NCBI RefSeq assembly: GCF_003019035.1
Contig: NZ_CP027447.1
Direction: 5' to 3' (one strand)
From: Escherichia coli
GTDB taxonomy: Bacteria > Pseudomonadota > Gammaproteobacteria > Enterobacterales > Enterobacteriaceae
Length of the DNA: 64,000 bases
The translations under genes were made by a program, and so were the position numbers. The first letter of the stretch is position 1. Every line of letters begins with the position of its first letter. Below, piece by piece: positions 31,231-62,322 of this stretch. The notes below the pieces were generated by a model. That model ran no database searches, had not been told where the DNA came from, and was given only the letters and a program-made list of their open reading frames with translations.

Positions 31231-32505
31231 TTATTTCCAGCAAATCAGACAGTAATTCTTTTTGCCGCGACGCAGTAAGGTAAAACGACCAAACAGACGA
31301 TCTTCTTCTTTAAAGAAGTATTCAGGATCGGACTGTTTTTCACCGTTAATGGTGATGGCATTAGAGGCGATAGTTTTACGCGCCTGACCACGGGAAGGTT
31401 GCAGTTCAGAATCGACCAGCGCCTGCATCAGGTCTGCGCCCTTTTCCATCTCAACCATCGGTACGCCGTCCTGCGCCAGCTGTTCGAAGTCCGCTTCACT
31501 CAGCGCACTCAAAGAACCGCTGAACAGGCATTCGGTAATACGTTTTGCCGCCTGTAAACCTTCTTCACCGTGAACCAGACGAGTCACCTGCTCCGCCAGT
31601 ACATACTGGGCGCGCGGTGCTTTACCGCTGTTTTTATCTTCTTCTTCCAGGGCGTTGATCTCTTCAATGCTCATAAAGGTGAAGAACTTCAGGAAGCGGT
31701 AAACGTCGGCATCCGCAGTGTTAATCCAGAACTGGTAGAATTTGTACGGGCTGGTTTTCTTCGGATCCAACCAGACTGCGCCGCCTTCAGTTTTACCAAA
31801 TTTGGTGCCGTCTGCTTTGGTGATCAGCGGAACGGTCAAGCCAAACACCTGATTCTGATGCAGACGACGGGTCAGGTCGATACCAGAAGTGATGTTACCC
31901 CACTGGTCAGAACCACCAATTTGCAGCACCACACCGTACTGTTTGTTCAGACAGGCGAAGTCATAACCCTGCAACAGGTTGTAGGAAAACTCAGTGAACG
32001 AAATCCCCTGATCTTCACGGTTGAGACGCTGCTTAACCGCTTCTTTGTTGATCATCTGGTTAACGGAGAAGTGTTTGCCAATATCGCGCAGGAAGGTCAG
32101 CACATTCATATTGCCGAACCAGTCATAGTTGTTCGCCGCGATAGCAGAGTTTTCTCCACAGTCGAAATCGAGGAACGGGGCAACCTGCTTGCGGATTTTG
32201 TCCACCCATTCCTGAACAGTTTCTTCGGTGTTCAGCTTACGCTCAGCAGCTTTGAAGCTCGGGTCGCCAATCAGACCCGTCGCGCCGCCTACCAGCGCAA
32301 CCGGCTTGTGGCCCGCCTGCTGGAAGCGTTTCAGGCATAACAATGGAACAAGATGCCCCAAATGCAAGCTGTCAGCGGTAGGATCGAAGCCGCAATAGAG
32401 CGCGATCGGGCCTTGCGCCAGTCGCTCTGCTAACGCTTCCTCGTCCGTCACCTGGGCTACCAGCCCCCGCTCTTGCAATTGTTTAATCAAGTTACTGCTT
32501 GCCAT
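31231..32505 (-). CDS. tyrS: Tyrosine--tRNA ligase
   Basis: HLGH (HIGH) and KFGKT (KMSKS) class I motifs; start taken at [10 protein letters not shown] (track ORF starts 4 codons upstream). Confidence 0.95.
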
Positions 32506-35000: not shown

Positions 35001-35060
35001 TGATGCGCCGCGCGATAAACGTACCTATTTCCGTGAGATAAATTACATCGCCGCGGCATT
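35001..35060. repeat. Putative prophage terminal sequence (Mu right-end-like, transposase-binding-like repeats)
   Basis: TGATGCGCCGCGCGATAAACG resembles the Mu R-end TGAAGCGGCGCACGAAAAACG (recalled from memory); repeated CGnGATAAA motifs; lies 78 bp beyond the invertase stop. Confidence 0.45.
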
Positions 35061-35078: not shown

Positions 35079-35651
35079 TTACAACTCAGCTTGAGTTTGA
35101 AGTTCCTCTACAGGGTGATAACGATAAATCGTCGATATACCGATATCGTAAATAATTGCCAACTGTTTCCTGCTATAGCCATTTTTGATCAGCCTTGCTA
35201 TTTGTTCATGTTGCTCTTTTGTCAGTTTCGGACGACGTCCACCAATACGCCCCTGTGCACGTGCTGCTTCAAGTCCGGCCAGTGTTCGTTCGACTATTAA
35301 TTCACGCTCCATTTCCGCTAAAGCCCCCATGACGTGAAAAAAGAAACGTCCCATGGGTGTTGACGTATCAATGCTGTCTGTAAGACTACGGAAGTTAACC
35401 CCTTTTTCCCGCAGTTCCTCAATAAGAGTGATTAGGTGTTTCATGCTTCTGCCCAGCCTGTCCAGCTTCCAGACAACGAGCGTATCTCCTTCTGATAACG
35501 TTCTGAGCAGCTTTTTCAATCCCGGTCGGGCTGACTTTGTTCCGCTGATTTTATCCTCAAAAATCAGTTCACATCCTGCGCAGTTCAGTGCGTTTCGTTG
35601 TAAATCTGTATTCTGGTCATTTGTTGACACACGAATGTAGCCAATTTGCAT
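35079..35651 (-). CDS. Serine-recombinase DNA invertase (Gin/Pin/Hin family)
   Basis: Start taken at MQIGYIRVSTNDQNTDLQRNAL (190 aa); catalytic-Ser N-terminal motif and C-terminal HTH; closest to Pin/Gin by memory. Track ORF 35079..35846 is over-extended. Confidence 0.92.
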   Translation of the reverse strand: MQIGYIRVSTNDQNTDLQRNALNCAGCELIFEDKISGTKSARPGLKKLLRTLSEGDTLVVWKLDRLGRSMKHLITLIEELREKGVNFRSLTDSIDTSTPMGRFFFHVMGALAEMERELIVERTLAGLEAARAQGRIGGRRPKLTKEQHEQIARLIKNGYSRKQLAIIYDIGISTIYRYHPVEELQTQAEL

Positions 35652-35722
35652 GAAAAATATCCTCTTTGTTTTGTTAAAAATACATAGCTGGTATAGGTGG
35701 GAGTTAAGACGAAAACGTTGGT

Positions 35723-36184
35723 TTGGGGGAAGGCTCTGCACTACCTGTTGGTGTGCCTGTTCCATGGCCGTCAGCCACACCGCCAACAGGGTGGCTGAAA
35801 TGTAACGGTGCAGCATTTTCTTCTGAAATGTACCCCAATCTGGCAAAGGCTTACCCCACGAATAAATTACCGGATTTACGGGGCGAATTTATCCGTGGCT
35901 GGGATGACGGACGAGGTATTGATGCAGGACGAGAGATACTTTCATTTCAGGAAGGCACTATCGTCTCCGGTTTTGATGATAATGATACTGGGGATATCAG
36001 TTCACTTAGCTCAACACAATACGGATTTGGTGACACTCTAACCTCTAATCAATGGGGGGCCATAAATGGCAAAAAGTGGATATTTGATGCATCCAGTAAA
36101 GGTGCACAAAAATATGACTGGTGGGCTTATGTATCAGCTCGTCCGCGTAATATTGCATTTAATTACATCGTAAGAGCGGCATAG
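35723..36184 (+). CDS. Tail-fibre C-terminal alternative cassette A (start-less, inverted relative to the fibre gene)
   Basis: Shares the conserved block GEGSALPVGVPVPWPSATPPTGWLKCNGAAFSSE...RGEFIRGWDDGRGID and the conserved end RPRNIAFNYIVRAA with the expressed fibre; no ATG (the track start is an alternative TTG codon). Confidence 0.7.
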   Translation: MGEGSALPVGVPVPWPSATPPTGWLKCNGAAFSSEMYPNLAKAYPTNKLPDLRGEFIRGWDDGRGIDAGREILSFQEGTIVSGFDDNDTGDISSLSSTQYGFGDTLTSNQWGAINGKKWIFDASSKGAQKYDWWAYVSARPRNIAFNYIVRAA

Positions 36185-36194
36185 AAACGTTGGT

Positions 36195-36671
36195 TTGGGG
36201 GAAGGCTCTGCACTGCCCGTTGGTGTACCTGTTCCGTGGCCCTCAGCCACTCCACCAACGGGCTGGCTGAAATGCAACGGCGCAGCATTTTCTTCTGAAG
36301 ATTACCCCAAACTGGCACAGGCTTACCCCGCGAACAAATTACCGGATCTACGGGGTGAATTTATCCGTGGCTGGGATGACGGGCGAGGGATTGATGCAGG
36401 ACGTGCTTTATTAAGCTTTCAAACTGGGATGCTGGAAAAACACCGCCATATTGTTGTAGCTAACGATGGGTATGACACAAAGGATGAATGGGAGTTGGCC
36501 ACAATTTTCAAAAAAACATATACACAAGGACGGGGACTTGATGCCACAAGTACAGGCGGGAGTCTGATCCCATCACCGACACTTCATTCACGAGGGAGTA
36601 TTGGTAACACTGGTGGTAGTGAAACTCGCCCCCGCAATATCGCATTTAACTATATCGTGAGGGCGGCTTAA
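36195..36671 (+). CDS. Tail-fibre C-terminal alternative cassette B (start-less, inverted)
   Basis: Same conserved 5' block and 3' end as cassette A, with a different central region; immediately follows cassette A. Confidence 0.7.
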   Translation: MGEGSALPVGVPVPWPSATPPTGWLKCNGAAFSSEDYPKLAQAYPANKLPDLRGEFIRGWDDGRGIDAGRALLSFQTGMLEKHRHIVVANDGYDTKDEWELATIFKKTYTQGRGLDATSTGGSLIPSPTLHSRGSIGNTGGSETRPRNIAFNYIVRAA

Positions 36672-36677
36672 TTATAC

Positions 36678-37295
36678 TCAACTGGCTGCTGCCAGAGGCA
36701 TTTCCGGCCAGTTGATATCCGGTGCAGTGCTGATGTCAGTCGCATTAAGCGTATCTATGAAATCAAGCACGGCGTTTAGTTTTTCCGTCTCCTGGGGCGT
36801 CAATCGGCGTCCGGCTCGTAGTTTGAGATTAATAAGCTCAACAGATGCCATTGCCTGTTCCTCAAGTTGCTGACGATGCGCTCCGGCAGCTTCCAGTTCT
36901 GCTGCGTGCTGTCGTCTCGTATCTGTCACCCAAATCTCACCATCCCAGACATCATAGATAGTAGCTGGCTGTTTCACCGTCGTATCAGGAGGGTAATCTC
37001 CCGGTTGTGTGATTTGCACAGCGTTACCATTCTCTGTGCTGTAAACCGTTTCGCCTCTGTGGTCTGGAACATATTTCCAGATGTTCTGGTCGGTATCACG
37101 ACAGACAGCGAAGCCGGGGCGTTTTTCTGGTGGCGCGTCAATGCATGAGTGAGCCGGAATTCCAACACCATAAGCGAGATACTCAACAGTGGCAGAGAGA
37201 TATTCACGGTTTTCAGCATCGTAGTTATAAACGGTAATATCGCCTGCAGTTATAGCGATACCATTCTGATCAAGTACTGCAGCAGCATTATTCAT
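36678..37295 (-). CDS. Tail-fibre assembly protein (Mu U / P2 G-like chaperone)
   Basis: 205-aa ORF of the tail-fibre assembly family; its start overlaps the cassette C stop (TAATG). Confidence 0.8.
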   Translation of the reverse strand: MNNAAAVLDQNGIAITAGDITVYNYDAENREYLSATVEYLAYGVGIPAHSCIDAPPEKRPGFAVCRDTDQNIWKYVPDHRGETVYSTENGNAVQITQPGDYPPDTTVKQPATIYDVWDGEIWVTDTRRQHAAELEAAGAHRQQLEEQAMASVELINLKLRAGRRLTPQETEKLNAVLDFIDTLNATDISTAPDINWPEMPLAAAS

Positions 37296-37819
37296 TAAGT
37301 AGCCCTTACAATATAGTTAAACGCAATATTACGGGGGCGGTTTTCCGTTCCTGTATTCCCTCCGTTGGCACCTAATCTATAAACACCACGAGTGCCAATA
37401 GCACGTAGTGAAGATGGAACTTTTACACCTGACTCATCTGTTTTAACAATCCCGCCATCACCGTATGTAGCCAGTATACCAGGGTTTGTTCCTGCACGGG
37501 TGCTGTTTGCGGCAAGCCCTTCACCAGTCCATAACTCCATATAATGAATATGATCTATAACCGAATGTGATTGTGCATTAAGCAAGGAACGCCCTGAATC
37601 AATTCCCCGCCCGTCATCCCAGCCACGAATAAACTCGCCCCGTAAATCCGGTAATTTATTGGTGGGGTAAGCCTTTGCCAGTTTGGGGTACATTTCAGAA
37701 GAAAATGCTGCACCGTTACATTTCAGCCACCCCGTTGGCGGCGTGGCTGAAGGCCATGGAACGGGCACACCAACGGGCAGCGCCGAGCCTTCCCCTAAAC
37801 CAACGTTTTCATGCGGCTC
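37295..37819 (-). CDS. Tail-fibre C-terminal alternative cassette C (start-less, direct orientation)
   Basis: Frame is open from the stop at 37820-37822; encodes ENVGLGEGSALPVGVPVPW...ENRPRNIAFNYIVRAT; no ATG. Confidence 0.7.
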   Translation of the reverse strand, partial: EPHENVGLGEGSALPVGVPVPWPSATPPTGWLKCNGAAFSSEMYPKLAKAYPTNKLPDLRGEFIRGWDDGRGIDSGRSLLNAQSHSVIDHIHYMELWTGEGLAANSTRAGTNPGILATYGDGGIVKTDESGVKVPSSLRAIGTRGVYRLGANGGNTGTENRPRNIAFNYIVRAT

Positions 37820-38351
37820 TTACGATGTAATTGAATGCAACGTTGCGGGGGCGTGTTTCTGCTGTGCCGACAATACTGGTACTCAGTCCTGTCGCTGTTC
37901 GTTTGTTATTTTTATTCCCTTCGATAAGACAGTTGTAATCGTCATTACCAATTAACGAGTTGGTGGCATCAATACCGTCCGGGGACAAGGCATTAGTTGT
38001 GGAACTTAAAGTCAGCATCTCGTCTGAACTTGGAAGATTTTTTAATGGGGTCTCATTACGTGAAATACCCGCATAAAAAAAGGACTCATGCCTGTGCGCT
38101 TCAAAAGAGTCATCCTGAAGACTTAGCAAGGCACGCCCAGCATCCAAGCCACGTCCATCATCCCAGCCACGGATAAATTCACCCCGTAGATCCGGTAATT
38201 TGTTCGCGGGGTAAGCCTGTGCCAGTTTGGGGTAATCTTCAGAAGAAAATGCTGCGCCGTTGCATTTCAGCCAGCCCGTTGGTGGAGTGGCTGAGGGCCA
38301 CGGAACAGGTACACCAACGGGCAGTGCAGAGCCTTCCCCAAACCAACGTTT
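37809..38351 (-). CDS. Tail-fibre C-terminal alternative cassette D (start-less, direct; G-tract one nt shorter than in the others)
   Basis: Conserved 5' block and RPRNVAFNYIVRAA end; the frame begins directly after the fibre gene's TAG stop; ggtttgggg here versus ggtttggggg in the fibre and cassettes A and B. Confidence 0.65.
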   Translation of the reverse strand, partial: KRWFGEGSALPVGVPVPWPSATPPTGWLKCNGAAFSSEDYPKLAQAYPANKLPDLRGEFIRGWDDGRGLDAGRALLSLQDDSFEAHRHESFFYAGISRNETPLKNLPSSDEMLTLSSTTNALSPDGIDATNSLIGNDDYNCLIEGNKNNKRTATGLSTSIVGTAETRPRNVAFNYIVRAA

Positions 38352-39317
38352 CTATGCTGCTCTCACAATGTAGTTAAAGGCGATGTTGCGTGGACGAGTT
38401 ACATTAAAAAAGGACCCACTTAAAGCAGCTTTGGCACGACCAGCGACGTTACCCAGAATTGCATACCATAAATAATCACTCCTGTAATTCGTTGAAAATG
38501 TTTTATCGCCACCGTAATCAATACTATTTCCGTTACTCATATATGAAATATCAACTGCGGCATCATTGTCATCTCTACCACCAACCAAAGTACCTTTCTG
38601 CCACCCAAGCAACTGGCGACCAGGATCAATCCCGCGCCCGTCATCCCAGCCACGGATAAATTCACCCCGTAAATCCGGTAATTTATTGGTGGGGTAAGCT
38701 TTTGCCAGTTTGGGATACATTTCAGAAGAAAATGCTGCACCGTTACATTTCAGCCAGCCCGTTGGTGGTGTTGCTGAGGGCCACGGAACAGGCACACCAA
38801 CGGGCAGCGCAGAGCCTTCCCCCAAACCAAGGTTTTTGACAAACAGCGCAGGATCAGGAATATCTGCGCCGTTCTGGTCTTTAGCCAGCTTTTCCGCCAG
38901 CTTGTTCAGTACCGTAGTCGCAAAGTTTGGATCATTACCGAGAGCGTCAGCCAGCTCTTTAAGCGTATCCAGTGTCTCAGGGGCGCTGCCTGCAAGCGCC
39001 GCAAGTGCTTTGGCCACAAACTCCGTTGTCGCCAGCTTTTTGCTGTTATCGCCATTTGCAGGTGTAGGTGCTGTTGGTGTGCCGGTGAATGTCGGACTGG
39101 CTTTCTGTGCGTACTGGGTATGCGGGTCTGCTGCCGCGATGTGTTTCGCAAGGTCAGCCCCGCCTTTTTCAACCTGTTGCTTCAGGTACAGCGTGCGGCT
39201 GGCCAGTTGTTTACCCTGACGGTTAGAAATTCCGTCAGGTCCGCCCAGAACGGGGTCAGAGACCTCAATCTGGTAGATGCCGTCTTCCCACTGCGGGGTT
39301 TCGGGTAGATTTGCCAT
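38352..39317 (-). CDS. Tail fibre protein (constant N-terminal part plus the currently fused variable C-terminal part)
   Basis: 321-aa ORF; residues from about 165 onward carry the same conserved block and end as the cassettes. Confidence 0.88.
   Translation of the reverse strand: MANLPETPQWEDGIYQIEVSDPVLGGPDGISNRQGKQLASRTLYLKQQVEKGGADLAKHIAAADPHTQYAQKASPTFTGTPTAPTPANGDNSKKLATTEFVAKALAALAGSAPETLDTLKELADALGNDPNFATTVLNKLAEKLAKDQNGADIPDPALFVKNLGLGEGSALPVGVPVPWPSATPPTGWLKCNGAAFSSEMYPKLAKAYPTNKLPDLRGEFIRGWDDGRGIDPGRQLLGWQKGTLVGGRDDNDAAVDISYMSNGNSIDYGGDKTFSTNYRSDYLWYAILGNVAGRAKAALSGSFFNVTRPRNIAFNYIVRAA
38817..38842. promoter_or_regulatory. Candidate invertase crossover site (hix/gix-like 26-bp imperfect palindrome) at the fibre constant/variable junction
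   Basis: TTCCCCCAAACC-AA-GGTTTTTGACAA; the right half matches the hixL half GGTTTTTGATAA at 11 of 12 positions (consensus recalled from memory); an equivalent GGTTTGGGGGAA half-site starts every cassette. Confidence 0.4.
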
Positions 39318-40993: not shown

Positions 40994-41331
40994 AGCAGTT
41001 CCTGAGTACGGGGTTGTCCGTCTGAGCCTTTCCAGCTCACCCGGAGCGTAAGATGTTCGCCGTCGACGGCGGGTTTAACCGACATAAGCTGGCAGCGGGG
41101 TTCCCAGCGCCTGATGGCATCGACGGATTCGCGAACCACATGCGGAATGGCCCGGTCGACAGGCCAGTCGATATAAAGGTGCAGATTGCTGCCGAACTCC
41201 GGGCGATGCGGGTCGCTGCCGCGGGGAGTCCGCAGGATGATCTGGATGGACTGCCGGATATCATCCAGCCCCCGGACGATTTCGCCGGGAGCCTGCAGAG
41301 CTGGTTGCCAGAATACTGAGGTCGTTTTCAT
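40984..41331 (-). CDS. Baseplate wedge protein (P2 gpW / T4 gp25-like)
   Basis: 115-aa ORF with a GPW/gp25-like sequence. Confidence 0.75.
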   Translation of the reverse strand: MKTTSVFWQPALQAPGEIVRGLDDIRQSIQIILRTPRGSDPHRPEFGSNLHLYIDWPVDRAIPHVVRESVDAIRRWEPRCQLMSVKPAVDGEHLTLRVSWKGSDGQPRTQELLWR

Positions 41332-41387
41332 GGAGGCAGTATTGCCCCCGGGAAGTAAGCACCGATATTAAAGGCGTTTAAGAAGGT

Positions 41388-41915
41388 TCAATGGGAATGG
41401 TGATTAGAGTTCTGACCATCTGCAAATATGTTACCCGTTGCATGGGCGCTTCCGTTGATTTCCAGATCACCATTGAGTGTCGCGGGGCCGTTGATCGTGG
41501 TAACTCCCGTGAGGTCGAGGTTTTTCCCTTTGAGAGAGATATCAGCGGCAACCTCCACCACGATACGCTCAATACCTCCTCTGACCGTCAGCGTATGGGT
41601 CGCGCGGTTATAACTGAACTCCGCGCCATCAGCGTATTTCGTACCCCGGACGTTTTTATCTCTGAACGGCGGTTTATCGACGTCTGAGTACACCGCGCCC
41701 AGAATAACACCATCCTCGCCGTTGGCATCGAGCAGCACCTCAACCTGCTCCCCCACGTCAGGGAGCCAGTAATCCTTGTTATCCTGGGTATTGCGCTGCA
41801 GCACGTTAAGCCAGTTTGTGCGCAGATTATCGCATTCAGGCAGACGAACGCGGGCCTGAACCCTGTCGGCATCCACGGCACTGACCGTACCGACCTGACG
41901 GGTGACACCAGTCAT
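41388..41915 (-). CDS. Baseplate spike/assembly protein (P2 gpV-like)
   Basis: 175-aa ORF; N-terminal OB-fold-like region followed by a Gly-rich tip. Confidence 0.7.
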   Translation of the reverse strand: MTGVTRQVGTVSAVDADRVQARVRLPECDNLRTNWLNVLQRNTQDNKDYWLPDVGEQVEVLLDANGEDGVILGAVYSDVDKPPFRDKNVRGTKYADGAEFSYNRATHTLTVRGGIERIVVEVAADISLKGKNLDLTGVTTINGPATLNGDLEINGSAHATGNIFADGQNSNHHSH

Positions 41916-53714: not shown

Positions 53715-54536
53715 TTATCCTCTCAGTTCCTGTTGTGCCAGTGGCTGAAGCGTACCCTGATAGCGGGCCAGGTCGGGACGGTATGCTGCCCCCGGTGCAT
53801 AAGACCAGCCGACGTCGGTGGTCACCTTCGTGGTGCCGGTATTAAAGGTGGCCACGTTCCGCATTTCGCCGGTTTTCTCTGAGACCAGTTTCAGTTCCTG
53901 GCCCATGGCAGAGCCGGAGCTGATAACCTTCAGGCCCCGGGCACGTACATCCGCCGCACTCAGGGCAATCACACTACAGCGGCAGCGCCAGCCGTTCGGC
54001 GGGTAAAATGCCTGCCAGAACGGGTCATCCCAGCGCAGCACCAGACCATGCAGCGCCAGATGGCTCCTGCGGGTATGGCTGTCGTTGATGCCGGTATACA
54101 TCCAGTACGGCCTGTCGTCGACGTTTTCCATCTGCTCCGCCCAACGACCGGCGCTGTAGAGTACGGACATATTGGTGCGAAAGATGGTGTCGAGCCGCCA
54201 CGGGCTGCCCTGCTGAATGGTGACCGGCTCACCCGTTACCGGGTCAGTCGTGTCACGTGGTCCCCACCATCCCTTACGCTTCAGCACCGGCTCCAGCTCC
54301 TGCCGGAACCAGCGATCGGTTTTTCCTTCATCGACAGCCTGCTGCAGTGCCCCGCGAATATCTTCCAGAATATCCAGGCGGGTCACTTTAGCGACGGTAA
54401 AGGCGCGGGCATGGGCTTCCTGCCACATTTCTTCCCAGTCCCAGGTAATCTGATACCCTTTGGACTTCAGGTAACTGACTGCCCGCTTCGGGGGAAGCGT
54501 CATGCAGTACGCCAGTTCAGCCGTTGTCACGCTCAT
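53715..54536 (-). CDS. Minor head protein (Mu F-like head morphogenesis)
   Basis: Start chosen at MSVTTAELAY; overlaps the portal gene's 3' end. Confidence 0.8.
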   Translation of the reverse strand: MSVTTAELAYCMTLPPKRAVSYLKSKGYQITWDWEEMWQEAHARAFTVAKVTRLDILEDIRGALQQAVDEGKTDRWFRQELEPVLKRKGWWGPRDTTDPVTGEPVTIQQGSPWRLDTIFRTNMSVLYSAGRWAEQMENVDDRPYWMYTGINDSHTRRSHLALHGLVLRWDDPFWQAFYPPNGWRCRCSVIALSAADVRARGLKVISSGSAMGQELKLVSEKTGEMRNVATFNTGTTKVTTDVGWSYAPGAAYRPDLARYQGTLQPLAQQELRG

Positions 54537-56013
54537 GCAGACGCCCCCGGATATTTGCCACAAAGAGAATGCGGGCCAGCCGCTCCTGCAGATCGTCCGT
54601 GTTCATCTGAGGGTAGAGCTCCGCCAGTTCGCCCAGCAGCTCAGACGGGTTAACCCCGTTTTCGACCCGCTTAAACAGAGGTGCCAGGACGGGTTCCAGC
54701 GTGCCATTTAACACACCTCCGTTCATCAGAATGTCCAGTGCGTCGTCAAGCTGCTGTTGAGCCTGAATATCGGCATCAATCGCCTCGGCAAATGACAGCG
54801 GCAGCATGTTCTTCTCGCGTTCTGACGGTGGTGTCTCGTCAATATCGCCGTCCTGCAGCTGGTACTCACGCTTGAAGTATTGCGGGGTCAGACGCAGACC
54901 CGCCCGGGTGAGTTTTTCGTCGCGGGTGGCACGGGTGTCATCAATGGCCTCCTGTTCCCACATGGCCCAGACCGGACACGGCACATCGCCGAAGTTCAGG
55001 GTGACCACCGTTCTTATGACCTGATTCACTGCCGCCTGAATGATGTCCGCATCCGCATCGCGGATATCAGCCGTCACCTCCAGCCCGGCCTGTGCAGAGG
55101 CCTTGTTACTGTTCGCTTCCGTGGTCTGATTCTGACCGAGTAATGCAATGGAGATCTCACTGCGTGACAGTGTGATCAGCTCGCGGAATACCTCGCTGCT
55201 GTCCGCCTTGCCATCCGCTGCTTTGAGTTCGATACTGCTGTCATCGGGGATGGCGGCCACCGCGTCCTCCACCATCTGCTCCATGGAGTCCAGCAGTTTT
55301 TCAATCTCTGCATCATTTGCACCCCTCGGGTGCTTACCGATCACCCACGGGGAGCCAAACTTTTCGGCAAAGCGGAGCCAGAATTTCATCCCGCCTTTCT
55401 TGAAGGCGACCGGCCAGAAGCACATGGACAGGTCCGGGAAACCGTAAGGATTGTCATAGGATGCATCCTGTGCCGGCACCACGAATTTTGACGGTGACAG
55501 CAGCTCACCCTCCACACCCGCATCACGCGCCCGGAAGCGCAGGCAGTTGTCCGTATCAAACTGGAACCACTCAGGTGGTTTGCCGACAATATCCGTCACC
55601 GCCCACGCCCTGACCGAACGGCCCCACATGATTTCACAGGGCTGATACCCGTAGAGCACGGCATCGCTCATCTCACCGATGATGCGGGACAGATCCAGAT
55701 CGTCGAGCATGTCGCGGATGAAACGGAAGACCCGGGCAGAAGCGTGACCGCGCTCCAGTCCACGCTCCAGCGATTTGAGCGCTGCTTTACGTCTGCGGAT
55801 ACAGCCCCCGACCAGCGGGTCGGTGCGCAGTTCGCGGTAGATACGGATATCCCGTCCCTGAGCCTTGAGAATGGGATCAGGATTGGGCAGATACATGCCC
55901 AGTCCGTAAAAGTCGATCGCGCGGCTGCGGGAGGCAATCTGCGCGGTCAGTGATTTCTGAGGCTCAGAAAAAGCAACAAATTCATCGGGTGAAACCCAGA
56001 TACCCCTCGCCAT
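54517..56013 (-). CDS. Portal protein (Mu gp29-like, DUF935-type)
   Basis: 498-aa ORF immediately after the large terminase gene. Confidence 0.85.
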   Translation of the reverse strand: MARGIWVSPDEFVAFSEPQKSLTAQIASRSRAIDFYGLGMYLPNPDPILKAQGRDIRIYRELRTDPLVGGCIRRRKAALKSLERGLERGHASARVFRFIRDMLDDLDLSRIIGEMSDAVLYGYQPCEIMWGRSVRAWAVTDIVGKPPEWFQFDTDNCLRFRARDAGVEGELLSPSKFVVPAQDASYDNPYGFPDLSMCFWPVAFKKGGMKFWLRFAEKFGSPWVIGKHPRGANDAEIEKLLDSMEQMVEDAVAAIPDDSSIELKAADGKADSSEVFRELITLSRSEISIALLGQNQTTEANSNKASAQAGLEVTADIRDADADIIQAAVNQVIRTVVTLNFGDVPCPVWAMWEQEAIDDTRATRDEKLTRAGLRLTPQYFKREYQLQDGDIDETPPSEREKNMLPLSFAEAIDADIQAQQQLDDALDILMNGGVLNGTLEPVLAPLFKRVENGVNPSELLGELAELYPQMNTDDLQERLARILFVANIRGRLHERDNG

Positions 56014-61557: not shown

Positions 61558-62322
61558 ATGAAAATGCAGTCATTACCCATCGTTCCATGGATTGGTGGCA
61601 AACGCCGCCTTGCAAAACACATTCTGCCGCTGTTTCCGGCGCATGAATGTTATGTGGAGCCGTTTTGTGGGGCAGCAGCGCTCTATTTTCTTAAGACACC
61701 CGGCAAGATCGAAGTCATTAATGATATCAACGGTGAACTGGTGAATCTGTACCGGGTGGTAAAGCATCACCTGGAAGAATTTGTCCACCAGTTCAAATGG
61801 GCGCTGGTCAGCCGTCAGATCTACAAGTGGCTGCAGATCACCCCGGAAGAAACACTGACGGATATCCAGCGTGCAGCACGGTTCTACTACCTCCAGAAGC
61901 AGGCGTTTGGCGGCAAGGTAGCAGAACACAGCTTCGGTACCTCCACCACATCCCCGCCACGCTTCAACCTGCTGCGTATTGAAGAAGAACTGTCAGCGGC
62001 ACACCTGCGACTTTCCAGAACAGTCATAGAACACATGGACTGGCAACAGTGCATTGAGCGCTATGATCGTCCGCACACGCTGTTCTACTGTGATCCGCCG
62101 TATCTGGGTACGGAAGGCTATGGTGTGGATTTTCCTGAAGGGAACTACTCGCGGCTGGCAGAGCTGGCCCGGTGCATCAGAGGAAAAATGATAATTTCGG
62201 TGAACGACATCCCGCAGATGCGCGAGGTGTTCACTGGACTGAACATACAGACAGTGAATATCAACTACAGTCTGGCGGGGAAACCCACGCCGCGCCGTGA
62301 ACTGATAATCTGCAACTTCTGA
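61558..62322 (+). CDS. DNA adenine methyltransferase (Dam / D12 class N6-adenine MTase)
   Basis: 254-aa ORF with an N-terminal AdoMet-binding region and the DPPY catalytic motif (YCDPPYLGTEGYG). Confidence 0.85.
   Translation: MKMQSLPIVPWIGGKRRLAKHILPLFPAHECYVEPFCGAAALYFLKTPGKIEVINDINGELVNLYRVVKHHLEEFVHQFKWALVSRQIYKWLQITPEETLTDIQRAARFYYLQKQAFGGKVAEHSFGTSTTSPPRFNLLRIEEELSAAHLRLSRTVIEHMDWQQCIERYDRPHTLFYCDPPYLGTEGYGVDFPEGNYSRLAELARCIRGKMIISVNDIPQMREVFTGLNIQTVNINYSLAGKPTPRRELIICNF

Follow-up and report, generated by a model that had tools for sequence, protein, structure and literature searches.

The window, i.e. the whole stretch of 64,000 nucleotides of Escherichia coli DNA that was analysed, carries a Mu-like (Bcepmuvirus-type) transposable prophage of E. 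coli with a tail-fibre switch at its right end. The prophage genes extend from 35079 to at least about 62300, and the module of tail and head genes consists of long open ORFs. An NCBIfam scan of the head and tail proteins gave little yield; the phage type was settled by tblastn with a 498-aa ORF (54517-56013), which matched the equivalent region of Escherichia phage PhiKM (Bcepmuvirus) at 98.8% identity and the portal genes of BcepMu and phiE255 at about 58-59%. A sharp end, TGATGCGCCGCGCGATAAACG, is common to the related prophages; in the window it is placed at 35001, and in each genome examined unrelated host DNA follows beyond it. We take this end to resemble the right end of Mu, and the invertible region described below occupies the place that the G segment and gin have in Mu. 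The end lies about 115 bp from anmK, in a flank of E. coli DNA (anmK, 99.8% identity). It should be added that in relatives a host gene is often truncated at TGATGCGCCGCGCGATAAACG.

The expressed fibre gene (38352..39317, minus strand, 321 aa) was assigned to the tail fibre family phrog_3100 of PHROG (E = 2.6e-129) and has a Pfam Collar domain at residues 174-221. Its constant part corresponds to nt 1-487 of the gene, and the variable cassette presently attached to it, W, runs from 38830 down to 38352. Next to the cassettes, 54 bp beyond the outermost crossover site S1, a serine DNA invertase of 190 aa with catalytic Ser9 is encoded (35079..35651, minus strand; PHROG DNA invertase, E = 1.5e-98). 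The five fibre ends have a single tail-fibre assembly (chaperone) gene between them (36678..37295, minus strand; phrog_105, E = 5.5e-83). It is located downstream of C3, between C3 and C2, within the invertible segment, and its orientation relative to the fibre gene therefore changes with inversion.

Two further genes of the prophage family were noted. A Dam-family adenine methyltransferase is encoded at 61558-62322 of the window (plus strand), on the strand opposite to the structural genes (TIGR00571, E = 1.4e-33). An extra gene with a PD-(D/E)XK nuclease domain, situated between the baseplate V and W genes, is present in related loci of the mouse lineage and of CFIAFB20190167 (L002, L003, L007 and L009-L011) and is absent from the corresponding place, 41331-41388, of the window prophage.

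Crossover sites, cassettes and reading frames

A 26-bp sequence, TTCCCCCAAACC-AA-GGTTTTTGACAA, occurs on the plus strand at 38817-38842, with the core AA at 38829-38830, as an exact and single-copy match; 100 shuffled sequences contained no match to it with three or fewer mismatches. Read in the sense of the fibre gene it is TTGTCAAAAACC-TT-GGTTTGGGGGAA. We designate this sequence S5, the fibre-proximal crossover site, placed on the minus strand with the fibre gene; its assignment rests on the exact sequence, on the likeness to hixL and on the boundaries of the surrounding repeats. Its half-sites agree as an inverted repeat at 8 of 12 positions, so that the imperfect palindrome around a 2-bp core that the sequence-only reading had proposed was recovered exactly in place. 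S5 spans codons F159-E167 of the fibre (FVKNLGLGE), with the core inside codon L163. The same reading had put the site at the junction between the constant part of the fibre and a block shared with the silent cassettes, and the direct as well as the inverted repeats of that block do terminate at 38835/38836, that is, in S5.

Compared with the published hixL (TTCTTGAAAACC AA GGTTTTTGATAA; PMC3241671 Table 3), S5 is identical at 21 of 26 positions, and the constant-side (right) half at 11 of 12. Diversity at third codon positions among 12 distinct fibre genes was 0.059 inside the site vs 0.187 upstream and 0.388 downstream; the set comprised fibre genes with a common constant half-site and included six more distant two-site systems from viral contigs. 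This low value suggests selection on the DNA sequence at the site in addition to selection on the protein.

A relaxed motif, CCNNAAACCNNSGTTT, was found six times against 0.68 expected occurrences, and its matches define five sites, S1-S5, all with the core TT in the sense of the cassette. S1 (AAGACGAAAACG-TT-GGTTTGGGGGAA; 35706..35731, plus strand) adjoins the invertase gene and heads cassette C1 (35718-36184), and S2 (GGCATAGAAACG-TT-GGTTTGGGGGAA; 36178..36203, plus strand) heads cassette C2 (36190-36671). S3 (CGCATGAAAACG-TT-GGTTTAGGGGAA; 37790..37815, minus strand) heads cassette C3 (37803 down to 37295), after which tfa follows. S4 (38333..38358, minus strand), whose G run is short by 1 bp, heads C4 (38346 down to 37809), a fourth silent cassette that begins directly after the stop codon of the fibre gene. 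Relative to S5, sites S1 and S2 are inverted and S3 and S4 direct. The half-sites recognised earlier are as described, with GGTTTGGGGGAA heading the cassettes of S1 and S2 and the one-base variant GGTTTAGGGGAA that of S3. The outer half-sites of the cassette sites are poor, with 5-7 of 12 positions matching the constant half of the fibre site.

Every cassette opens with the shared tail-collar block and closes with ...RPRNIAFNYIVRAA/T followed by a stop codon. The repeat finder returned five copies of the block, of about 219-275 nt and 83-94% identical, three on one strand and two on the other.

When the constant fibre part was fused in silico with the cassettes at the core, open frames of 317 aa for S1, 322 aa for S2 and 331 aa for S3 resulted. 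The earlier expectation that exchange at the core would keep the reading frame thus holds for these three cassettes and fails for the overlooked S4, the fusion of which is frame-shifted and stops after 188 aa. The half-site of S4 has four G (GGTTTGGGGAA), and this change from G5 to G4 is the only indel that separates the cassette from its intact counterpart in strain 12089. A true frameshift, a tract prone to slippage and an error in sequencing a homopolymer could each explain it.

Invertase, candidate enhancer and related inversion systems

The invertase aligned with the structures of Mu Gin, 4m6f/3uj3, over residues 1-183 (phmmer, E = 6e-91). Its helix-B basic residues K46, K47 and R50 are equivalent to K47, R48 and K51 of Hin, and this basic patch has been described as specific to the Fis/enhancer-dependent invertases (PMC3798978). 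In the GenBank record of P1 (NC_005856) the Cin enhancer is annotated at 31678-31749, i.e. nt +19 to +90 of cin. The positional homologue in the window, 35562..35633 on the minus strand (nt +19 to +90 of the invertase ORF), is our candidate for a recombinational (Fis) enhancer. This interval is 81% identical to that of cin, vs 71% for nt 91-420 of the invertase gene. In the comparison with the invertase gene of EC958 Phi2, third codon positions were identical in 17 of 24 cases within the interval and in 45 of 110 within nt 91-420. Furthermore, the interval contains two conserved 15-mers with G...C ends, TGTCAACAAATGACC and GCGCAGGATGTGAAC, 48 bp apart and centred at +30 and +78. The conservation of this interval at the 5' end of the invertase gene is consistent with a recombinational enhancer. 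A simple scan of the invertase gene with the Fis consensus produced many weak hits, hence no evidence on its own, and was substituted by the comparison with the enhancer annotated in P1.

The likeness to hixL, the common core, the intact Gin-like invertase and the homologue of the P1 enhancer all bear out the assignment of the site to the Hin/Gin family. The family was thus correctly named; the closest relative, however, is the multi-site Min system of p15B and not the two-site Hin or Gin. The Min multiple-inversion system of p15B, associated with the names of Sandmeier, Iida and Arber, reportedly has six mix sites. Both it and the window system have more than two 26-bp sites in both orientations and one serine invertase, and in both the cassettes are promoterless 3' ends of a tail-fibre gene; the two have the cassette-side half-site TTCCCC(C/T)AAACC in common, as well as the core AA. 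Unlike Min, with its six sites on a P1-type plasmid prophage, the window system has five sites on a chromosomal Mu-like transposable prophage; its constant-side half-site is the hix-like GGTTTTTGACAA instead of GGTAATCAAGAA, and the constant part of its fibre is different and much shorter.

The likeness extends to individual sites. On its other strand S1 reads TTCCCCCAAACC AA CGTTTTCGTCTT, which is one mismatch away from mixMI''L' of p15B (TTCCCCCAAACC AA CGTTTTAGTCTT; PMC3241671 Table 3). S2 and S3 differ by two mismatches each from other p15B mix sites. The sites published for p15B include TTCCCCTAAACC AA CGTTTTTATGCC for mixMr''N', mixO''P' and mixP''Q' and TTCCCCCAAACC AA GGTAATCAAGAA for mixQ''R' (PMC3241671 Table 3). 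The variant half-site TTCCCCTAAACC of the third cassette is itself a standard mix half-site of p15B (PMC3241671). Taken by what defines the Min type, the window holds five sites in both orientations, one invertase and four silent cassettes beside one that is expressed, and its relatives hold from three to six sites.

With the G segment of Mu (Gin/gix), and likewise with Cin/cix of P1 and Hin/hix of Salmonella, the window system shares the location at the end of the late operon, near the right end of the phage, with the invertase just outside the segment; in these systems, too, the site marks the transition from the constant to the variable part of the fibre gene, and their enhancer lies within the invertase gene, where the candidate enhancer of the window is also placed. 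They differ in having two sites and two alternatives, with a chaperone gene for each, as against five sites, five alternatives and one chaperone gene here. The core of gix is GA, whereas the window has TT/AA, like hix, cix, pix and mix. The P segment of the K-12 element e14 (Pin/pix) resembles the window system in that pixR (TTCTCCCAAACC AA CGTTTATGAAAA; PMC3241671 Table 3) shares the CCAAACC-AA-CGTTT centre of the cassette sites (PMC3241671), and is unlike it in being a two-site system of a defective lambdoid element.

Phi2 of the E. coli ST131 strain EC958 has baseplate genes, tail protein I, fibre, cassettes, chaperone and invertase in the same order as the window, together with the same cassette half-site GGTTTGGGGGAA and the same shared block. 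It has three sites, a constant-side half-site TCCTCAATTACC and an invertase 84% identical to that of the window. One of its crossover sites, nearly identical to S5, was published as GAGAGATAAACG-TT-GGTTTGGGGGAA followed by a 197-bp repeat, and PacBio reads showed the segment in either orientation (PMC4134206 Table 3). In the EPEC strain E2348/69 a prophage switch with three repeats and four variants has been described, and the coexistence of the variants was confirmed by PCR (PMC4272514); from this description, it is a switch of the same kind. The closest phage record to the region of the invertase and S1 was a 95-kb E. coli phage at 89.7% identity. The mechanism is hence already known, and the same sites and the same prophage family were described previously. 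A shufflon of the R64 type, in which the tyrosine recombinase Rci acts on 19-bp sfx repeats in pilV, was considered and dismissed on account of the serine invertase, the 26-bp hix-like sites and the phage fibre gene.

Natural isomers and the position of strand exchange

Parts of the 4.4-kb region matched 1,933 of 5,426 complete E. coli genomes, about a third. A single prophage, inserted beside yehR at a common chromosomal position, was found in seven mouse-derived genomes (DEF2, FEA3, 3-72, DEF10 and strain 8178, the last represented by three isolates). Its constant-side site does not differ from that of the window, the DEF2 invertase is identical to the window enzyme at 189 of 190 aa, and one accession for the invertase protein is annotated in all seven genomes. 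Throughout the lineage the four cassettes show no nucleotide difference between core and stop codon, and they occur in four arrangements and 11 combinations of left flank and cassette; one or two inversions between sites of opposite orientation separate the arrangements. The base immediately left of the core was always linked to the flank (C in the fibre, G elsewhere), and the first distinguishing bases on the right (+21, +24 or +39) were always linked to the cassette, which places the point of exchange within the 22-40 bp abutting the core (-1 to +20/+38).

The ST131 genomes narrow this interval. EC958 and strain 4/4 are one reciprocal inversion apart, with identical flanks and cassettes, and their half-sites differ at +6 (GGTTTAGGAGAA vs GGTTTGGGGGAA), so the junction must lie within the 7 bp TTGGTTT. 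A query made of the predicted core recombinant matched 167 E. coli records at an identity of at least 99%, and all nine of the sampled records were exact. The sampled full-length ST131 matches took four identity values only (100, 95.2, 94.0 and 92.9%), without intermediates; attachment of one or another of three distinct cassettes would give just these values.

In sister loci of the mouse lineage and of ST131, that is, in genomes other than that of the window, the exchange points thereby map to the site rather than to other parts of the 200-bp block; junctions in those other parts were what the sequence-only reading had named as refuting it. The comparison resolves the position of cleavage to 7 bp at best, and a cut at the central dinucleotide is taken from the biochemistry of the family. 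An isomer of this exact insertion beside anmK was not found in the 5,426 complete E. coli genomes, where matches covered either the host half or the prophage half; similarly, the exact recombinant of the constant part with the S3 cassette was not found in E. coli genomes (chimeric query, best match 96.4%). The constant half-site combined with the 'A' variant of S3 was also tried as a means to narrow the junction. Its six viral-contig hits turned out to be more distant systems with two sites, which normally carry the A variant, and they show conservation of the site and leave the junction as it stands.

Model of the switch and its longer-term history

We consider it very probable, with a likelihood of around 0.9, that a five-site, Min-like multiple DNA inversion system of the Hin/Gin/Cin/Pin/Min ('Din') family has its fixed, fibre-proximal site in the 26-bp sequence. 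By analogy with that family, a dimer of the adjacent serine invertase would bind each site, and two inverted sites would pair at the Fis-bound enhancer in the 5' part of the invertase gene. Each duplex would then be cleaved at the central TT/AA with a 2-nt stagger and a phosphoserine link, and rotation of the subunits would exchange the half-sites before re-ligation. The same analogy leads us to expect the system to cut at the central dinucleotide, to depend on Fis, on the enhancer and on negative supercoiling, and to be active in this strain. The intervening DNA would thus invert and fuse another promoterless 3' cassette in frame after codon 163 of the fibre, replacing its receptor-binding tail-collar end.

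Since S1 and S2 are inverted relative to S5, one inversion suffices to fuse either of their cassettes to the fibre, whereas the direct S3 and S4 need a prior flip with S1 or S2. When all inversions between sites of opposite orientation were explored breadth-first, 48 arrangements proved reachable, with each of the five cassettes brought onto the fibre in at most two inversions.

General homologous recombination of the RecA type between inverted block copies of 200-275 bp could also swap cassettes and would render the 26-bp palindrome incidental. The substrate for it exists, in the form of long inverted repeats of 83-94% identity, and a mosaic of the block between lineages, including a CFIAFB20190167 cassette with the whole block of another class and differences concentrated at positions 8-190, speaks in its favour. 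However, the junctions of the nearly isogenic isomers are all found within the 7-40 bp next to the core, none of them further into the block, the identities of the sampled ST131 junctions are discrete, and the homology stops at a site that is accompanied by a dedicated invertase and an enhancer homologue. We therefore regard such recombination as a most improbable basis of the switch. It is less improbable, but still unlikely, that the site is a genuine member of the family and yet a relic, the system being frozen by a defective prophage or an unexpressed invertase and the fibre fixed in its present form. The missing isomer of this insertion among the 5,426 complete genomes, the frameshifted S4 cassette and the decay seen in relatives (the scrambled expressed cassette of JB2 and the collapsed locus of LC-1302-2020) would all agree with a frozen system. 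Against it stand the intact invertase ORF, which differs by 1-2 residues from those of JB2 and DEF2, the core TT kept at all five sites, the three cassettes that are intact and in frame, and the open tail and head module.

The preferred five-site inversion system might be elaborated further, into a Min-type switch of 48 arrangements with two extra controls, namely the length of the G run in S4 and the co-orientation of the chaperone gene; this we hold to be a rather remote prospect. Under it, changes in the length of the G run within the half-site of S4 itself would silence or activate the cassette. With the only chaperone gene placed in the invertible segment, its co-orientation with the fibre gene would be switched as well.

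Such switches determine the host range of the temperate phage or tailocin that carries them, and they make a clone heterogeneous. They are also a source of errors in assembly and annotation, such as 'partial' tail protein genes and spurious contigs. With the five sites marked, the silent cassettes can be annotated correctly and the arrangements become predictable.

Over longer timescales, the shared block (taken as the first ~190 nt of each cassette, e.g. 35720-35910, 36192-36380, 37610-37801 and 38640-38828 in the window) has a history of its own. Between lineages, homologous cassettes differ almost only inside the block, at positions 8-190, where divergence amounts to about 10%, and their variable parts are nearly identical; in one homologous pair all 21 differences lie at positions 20-176. 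Moreover, one cassette of CFIAFB20190167 carries the entire block of another cassette class. These sequence patterns suggest that gene conversion or homologous exchange among block copies operates on an evolutionary timescale in addition to site-specific switching.

Several relatives show altered loci. In JB2, the closest relative at 97.7% identity, short internal duplications and deletions have scrambled the fibre-attached cassette (L001, 6271-6975), which terminates early, and the fibre has 261 aa. LC-1302-2020 has a collapsed locus (L014, 4040-4115) with two facing sites about 60 bp apart, no silent cassettes and a fibre of 640 aa. In the viral contig IMGVR_UViG_3300039355_000035 (L019, 3196), a distant two-site relative, the cassette of the second site is devoid of the tail-collar block (GGTTTGAAAGAAGCGGC...), and the same site thus swaps unrelated fibre ends.
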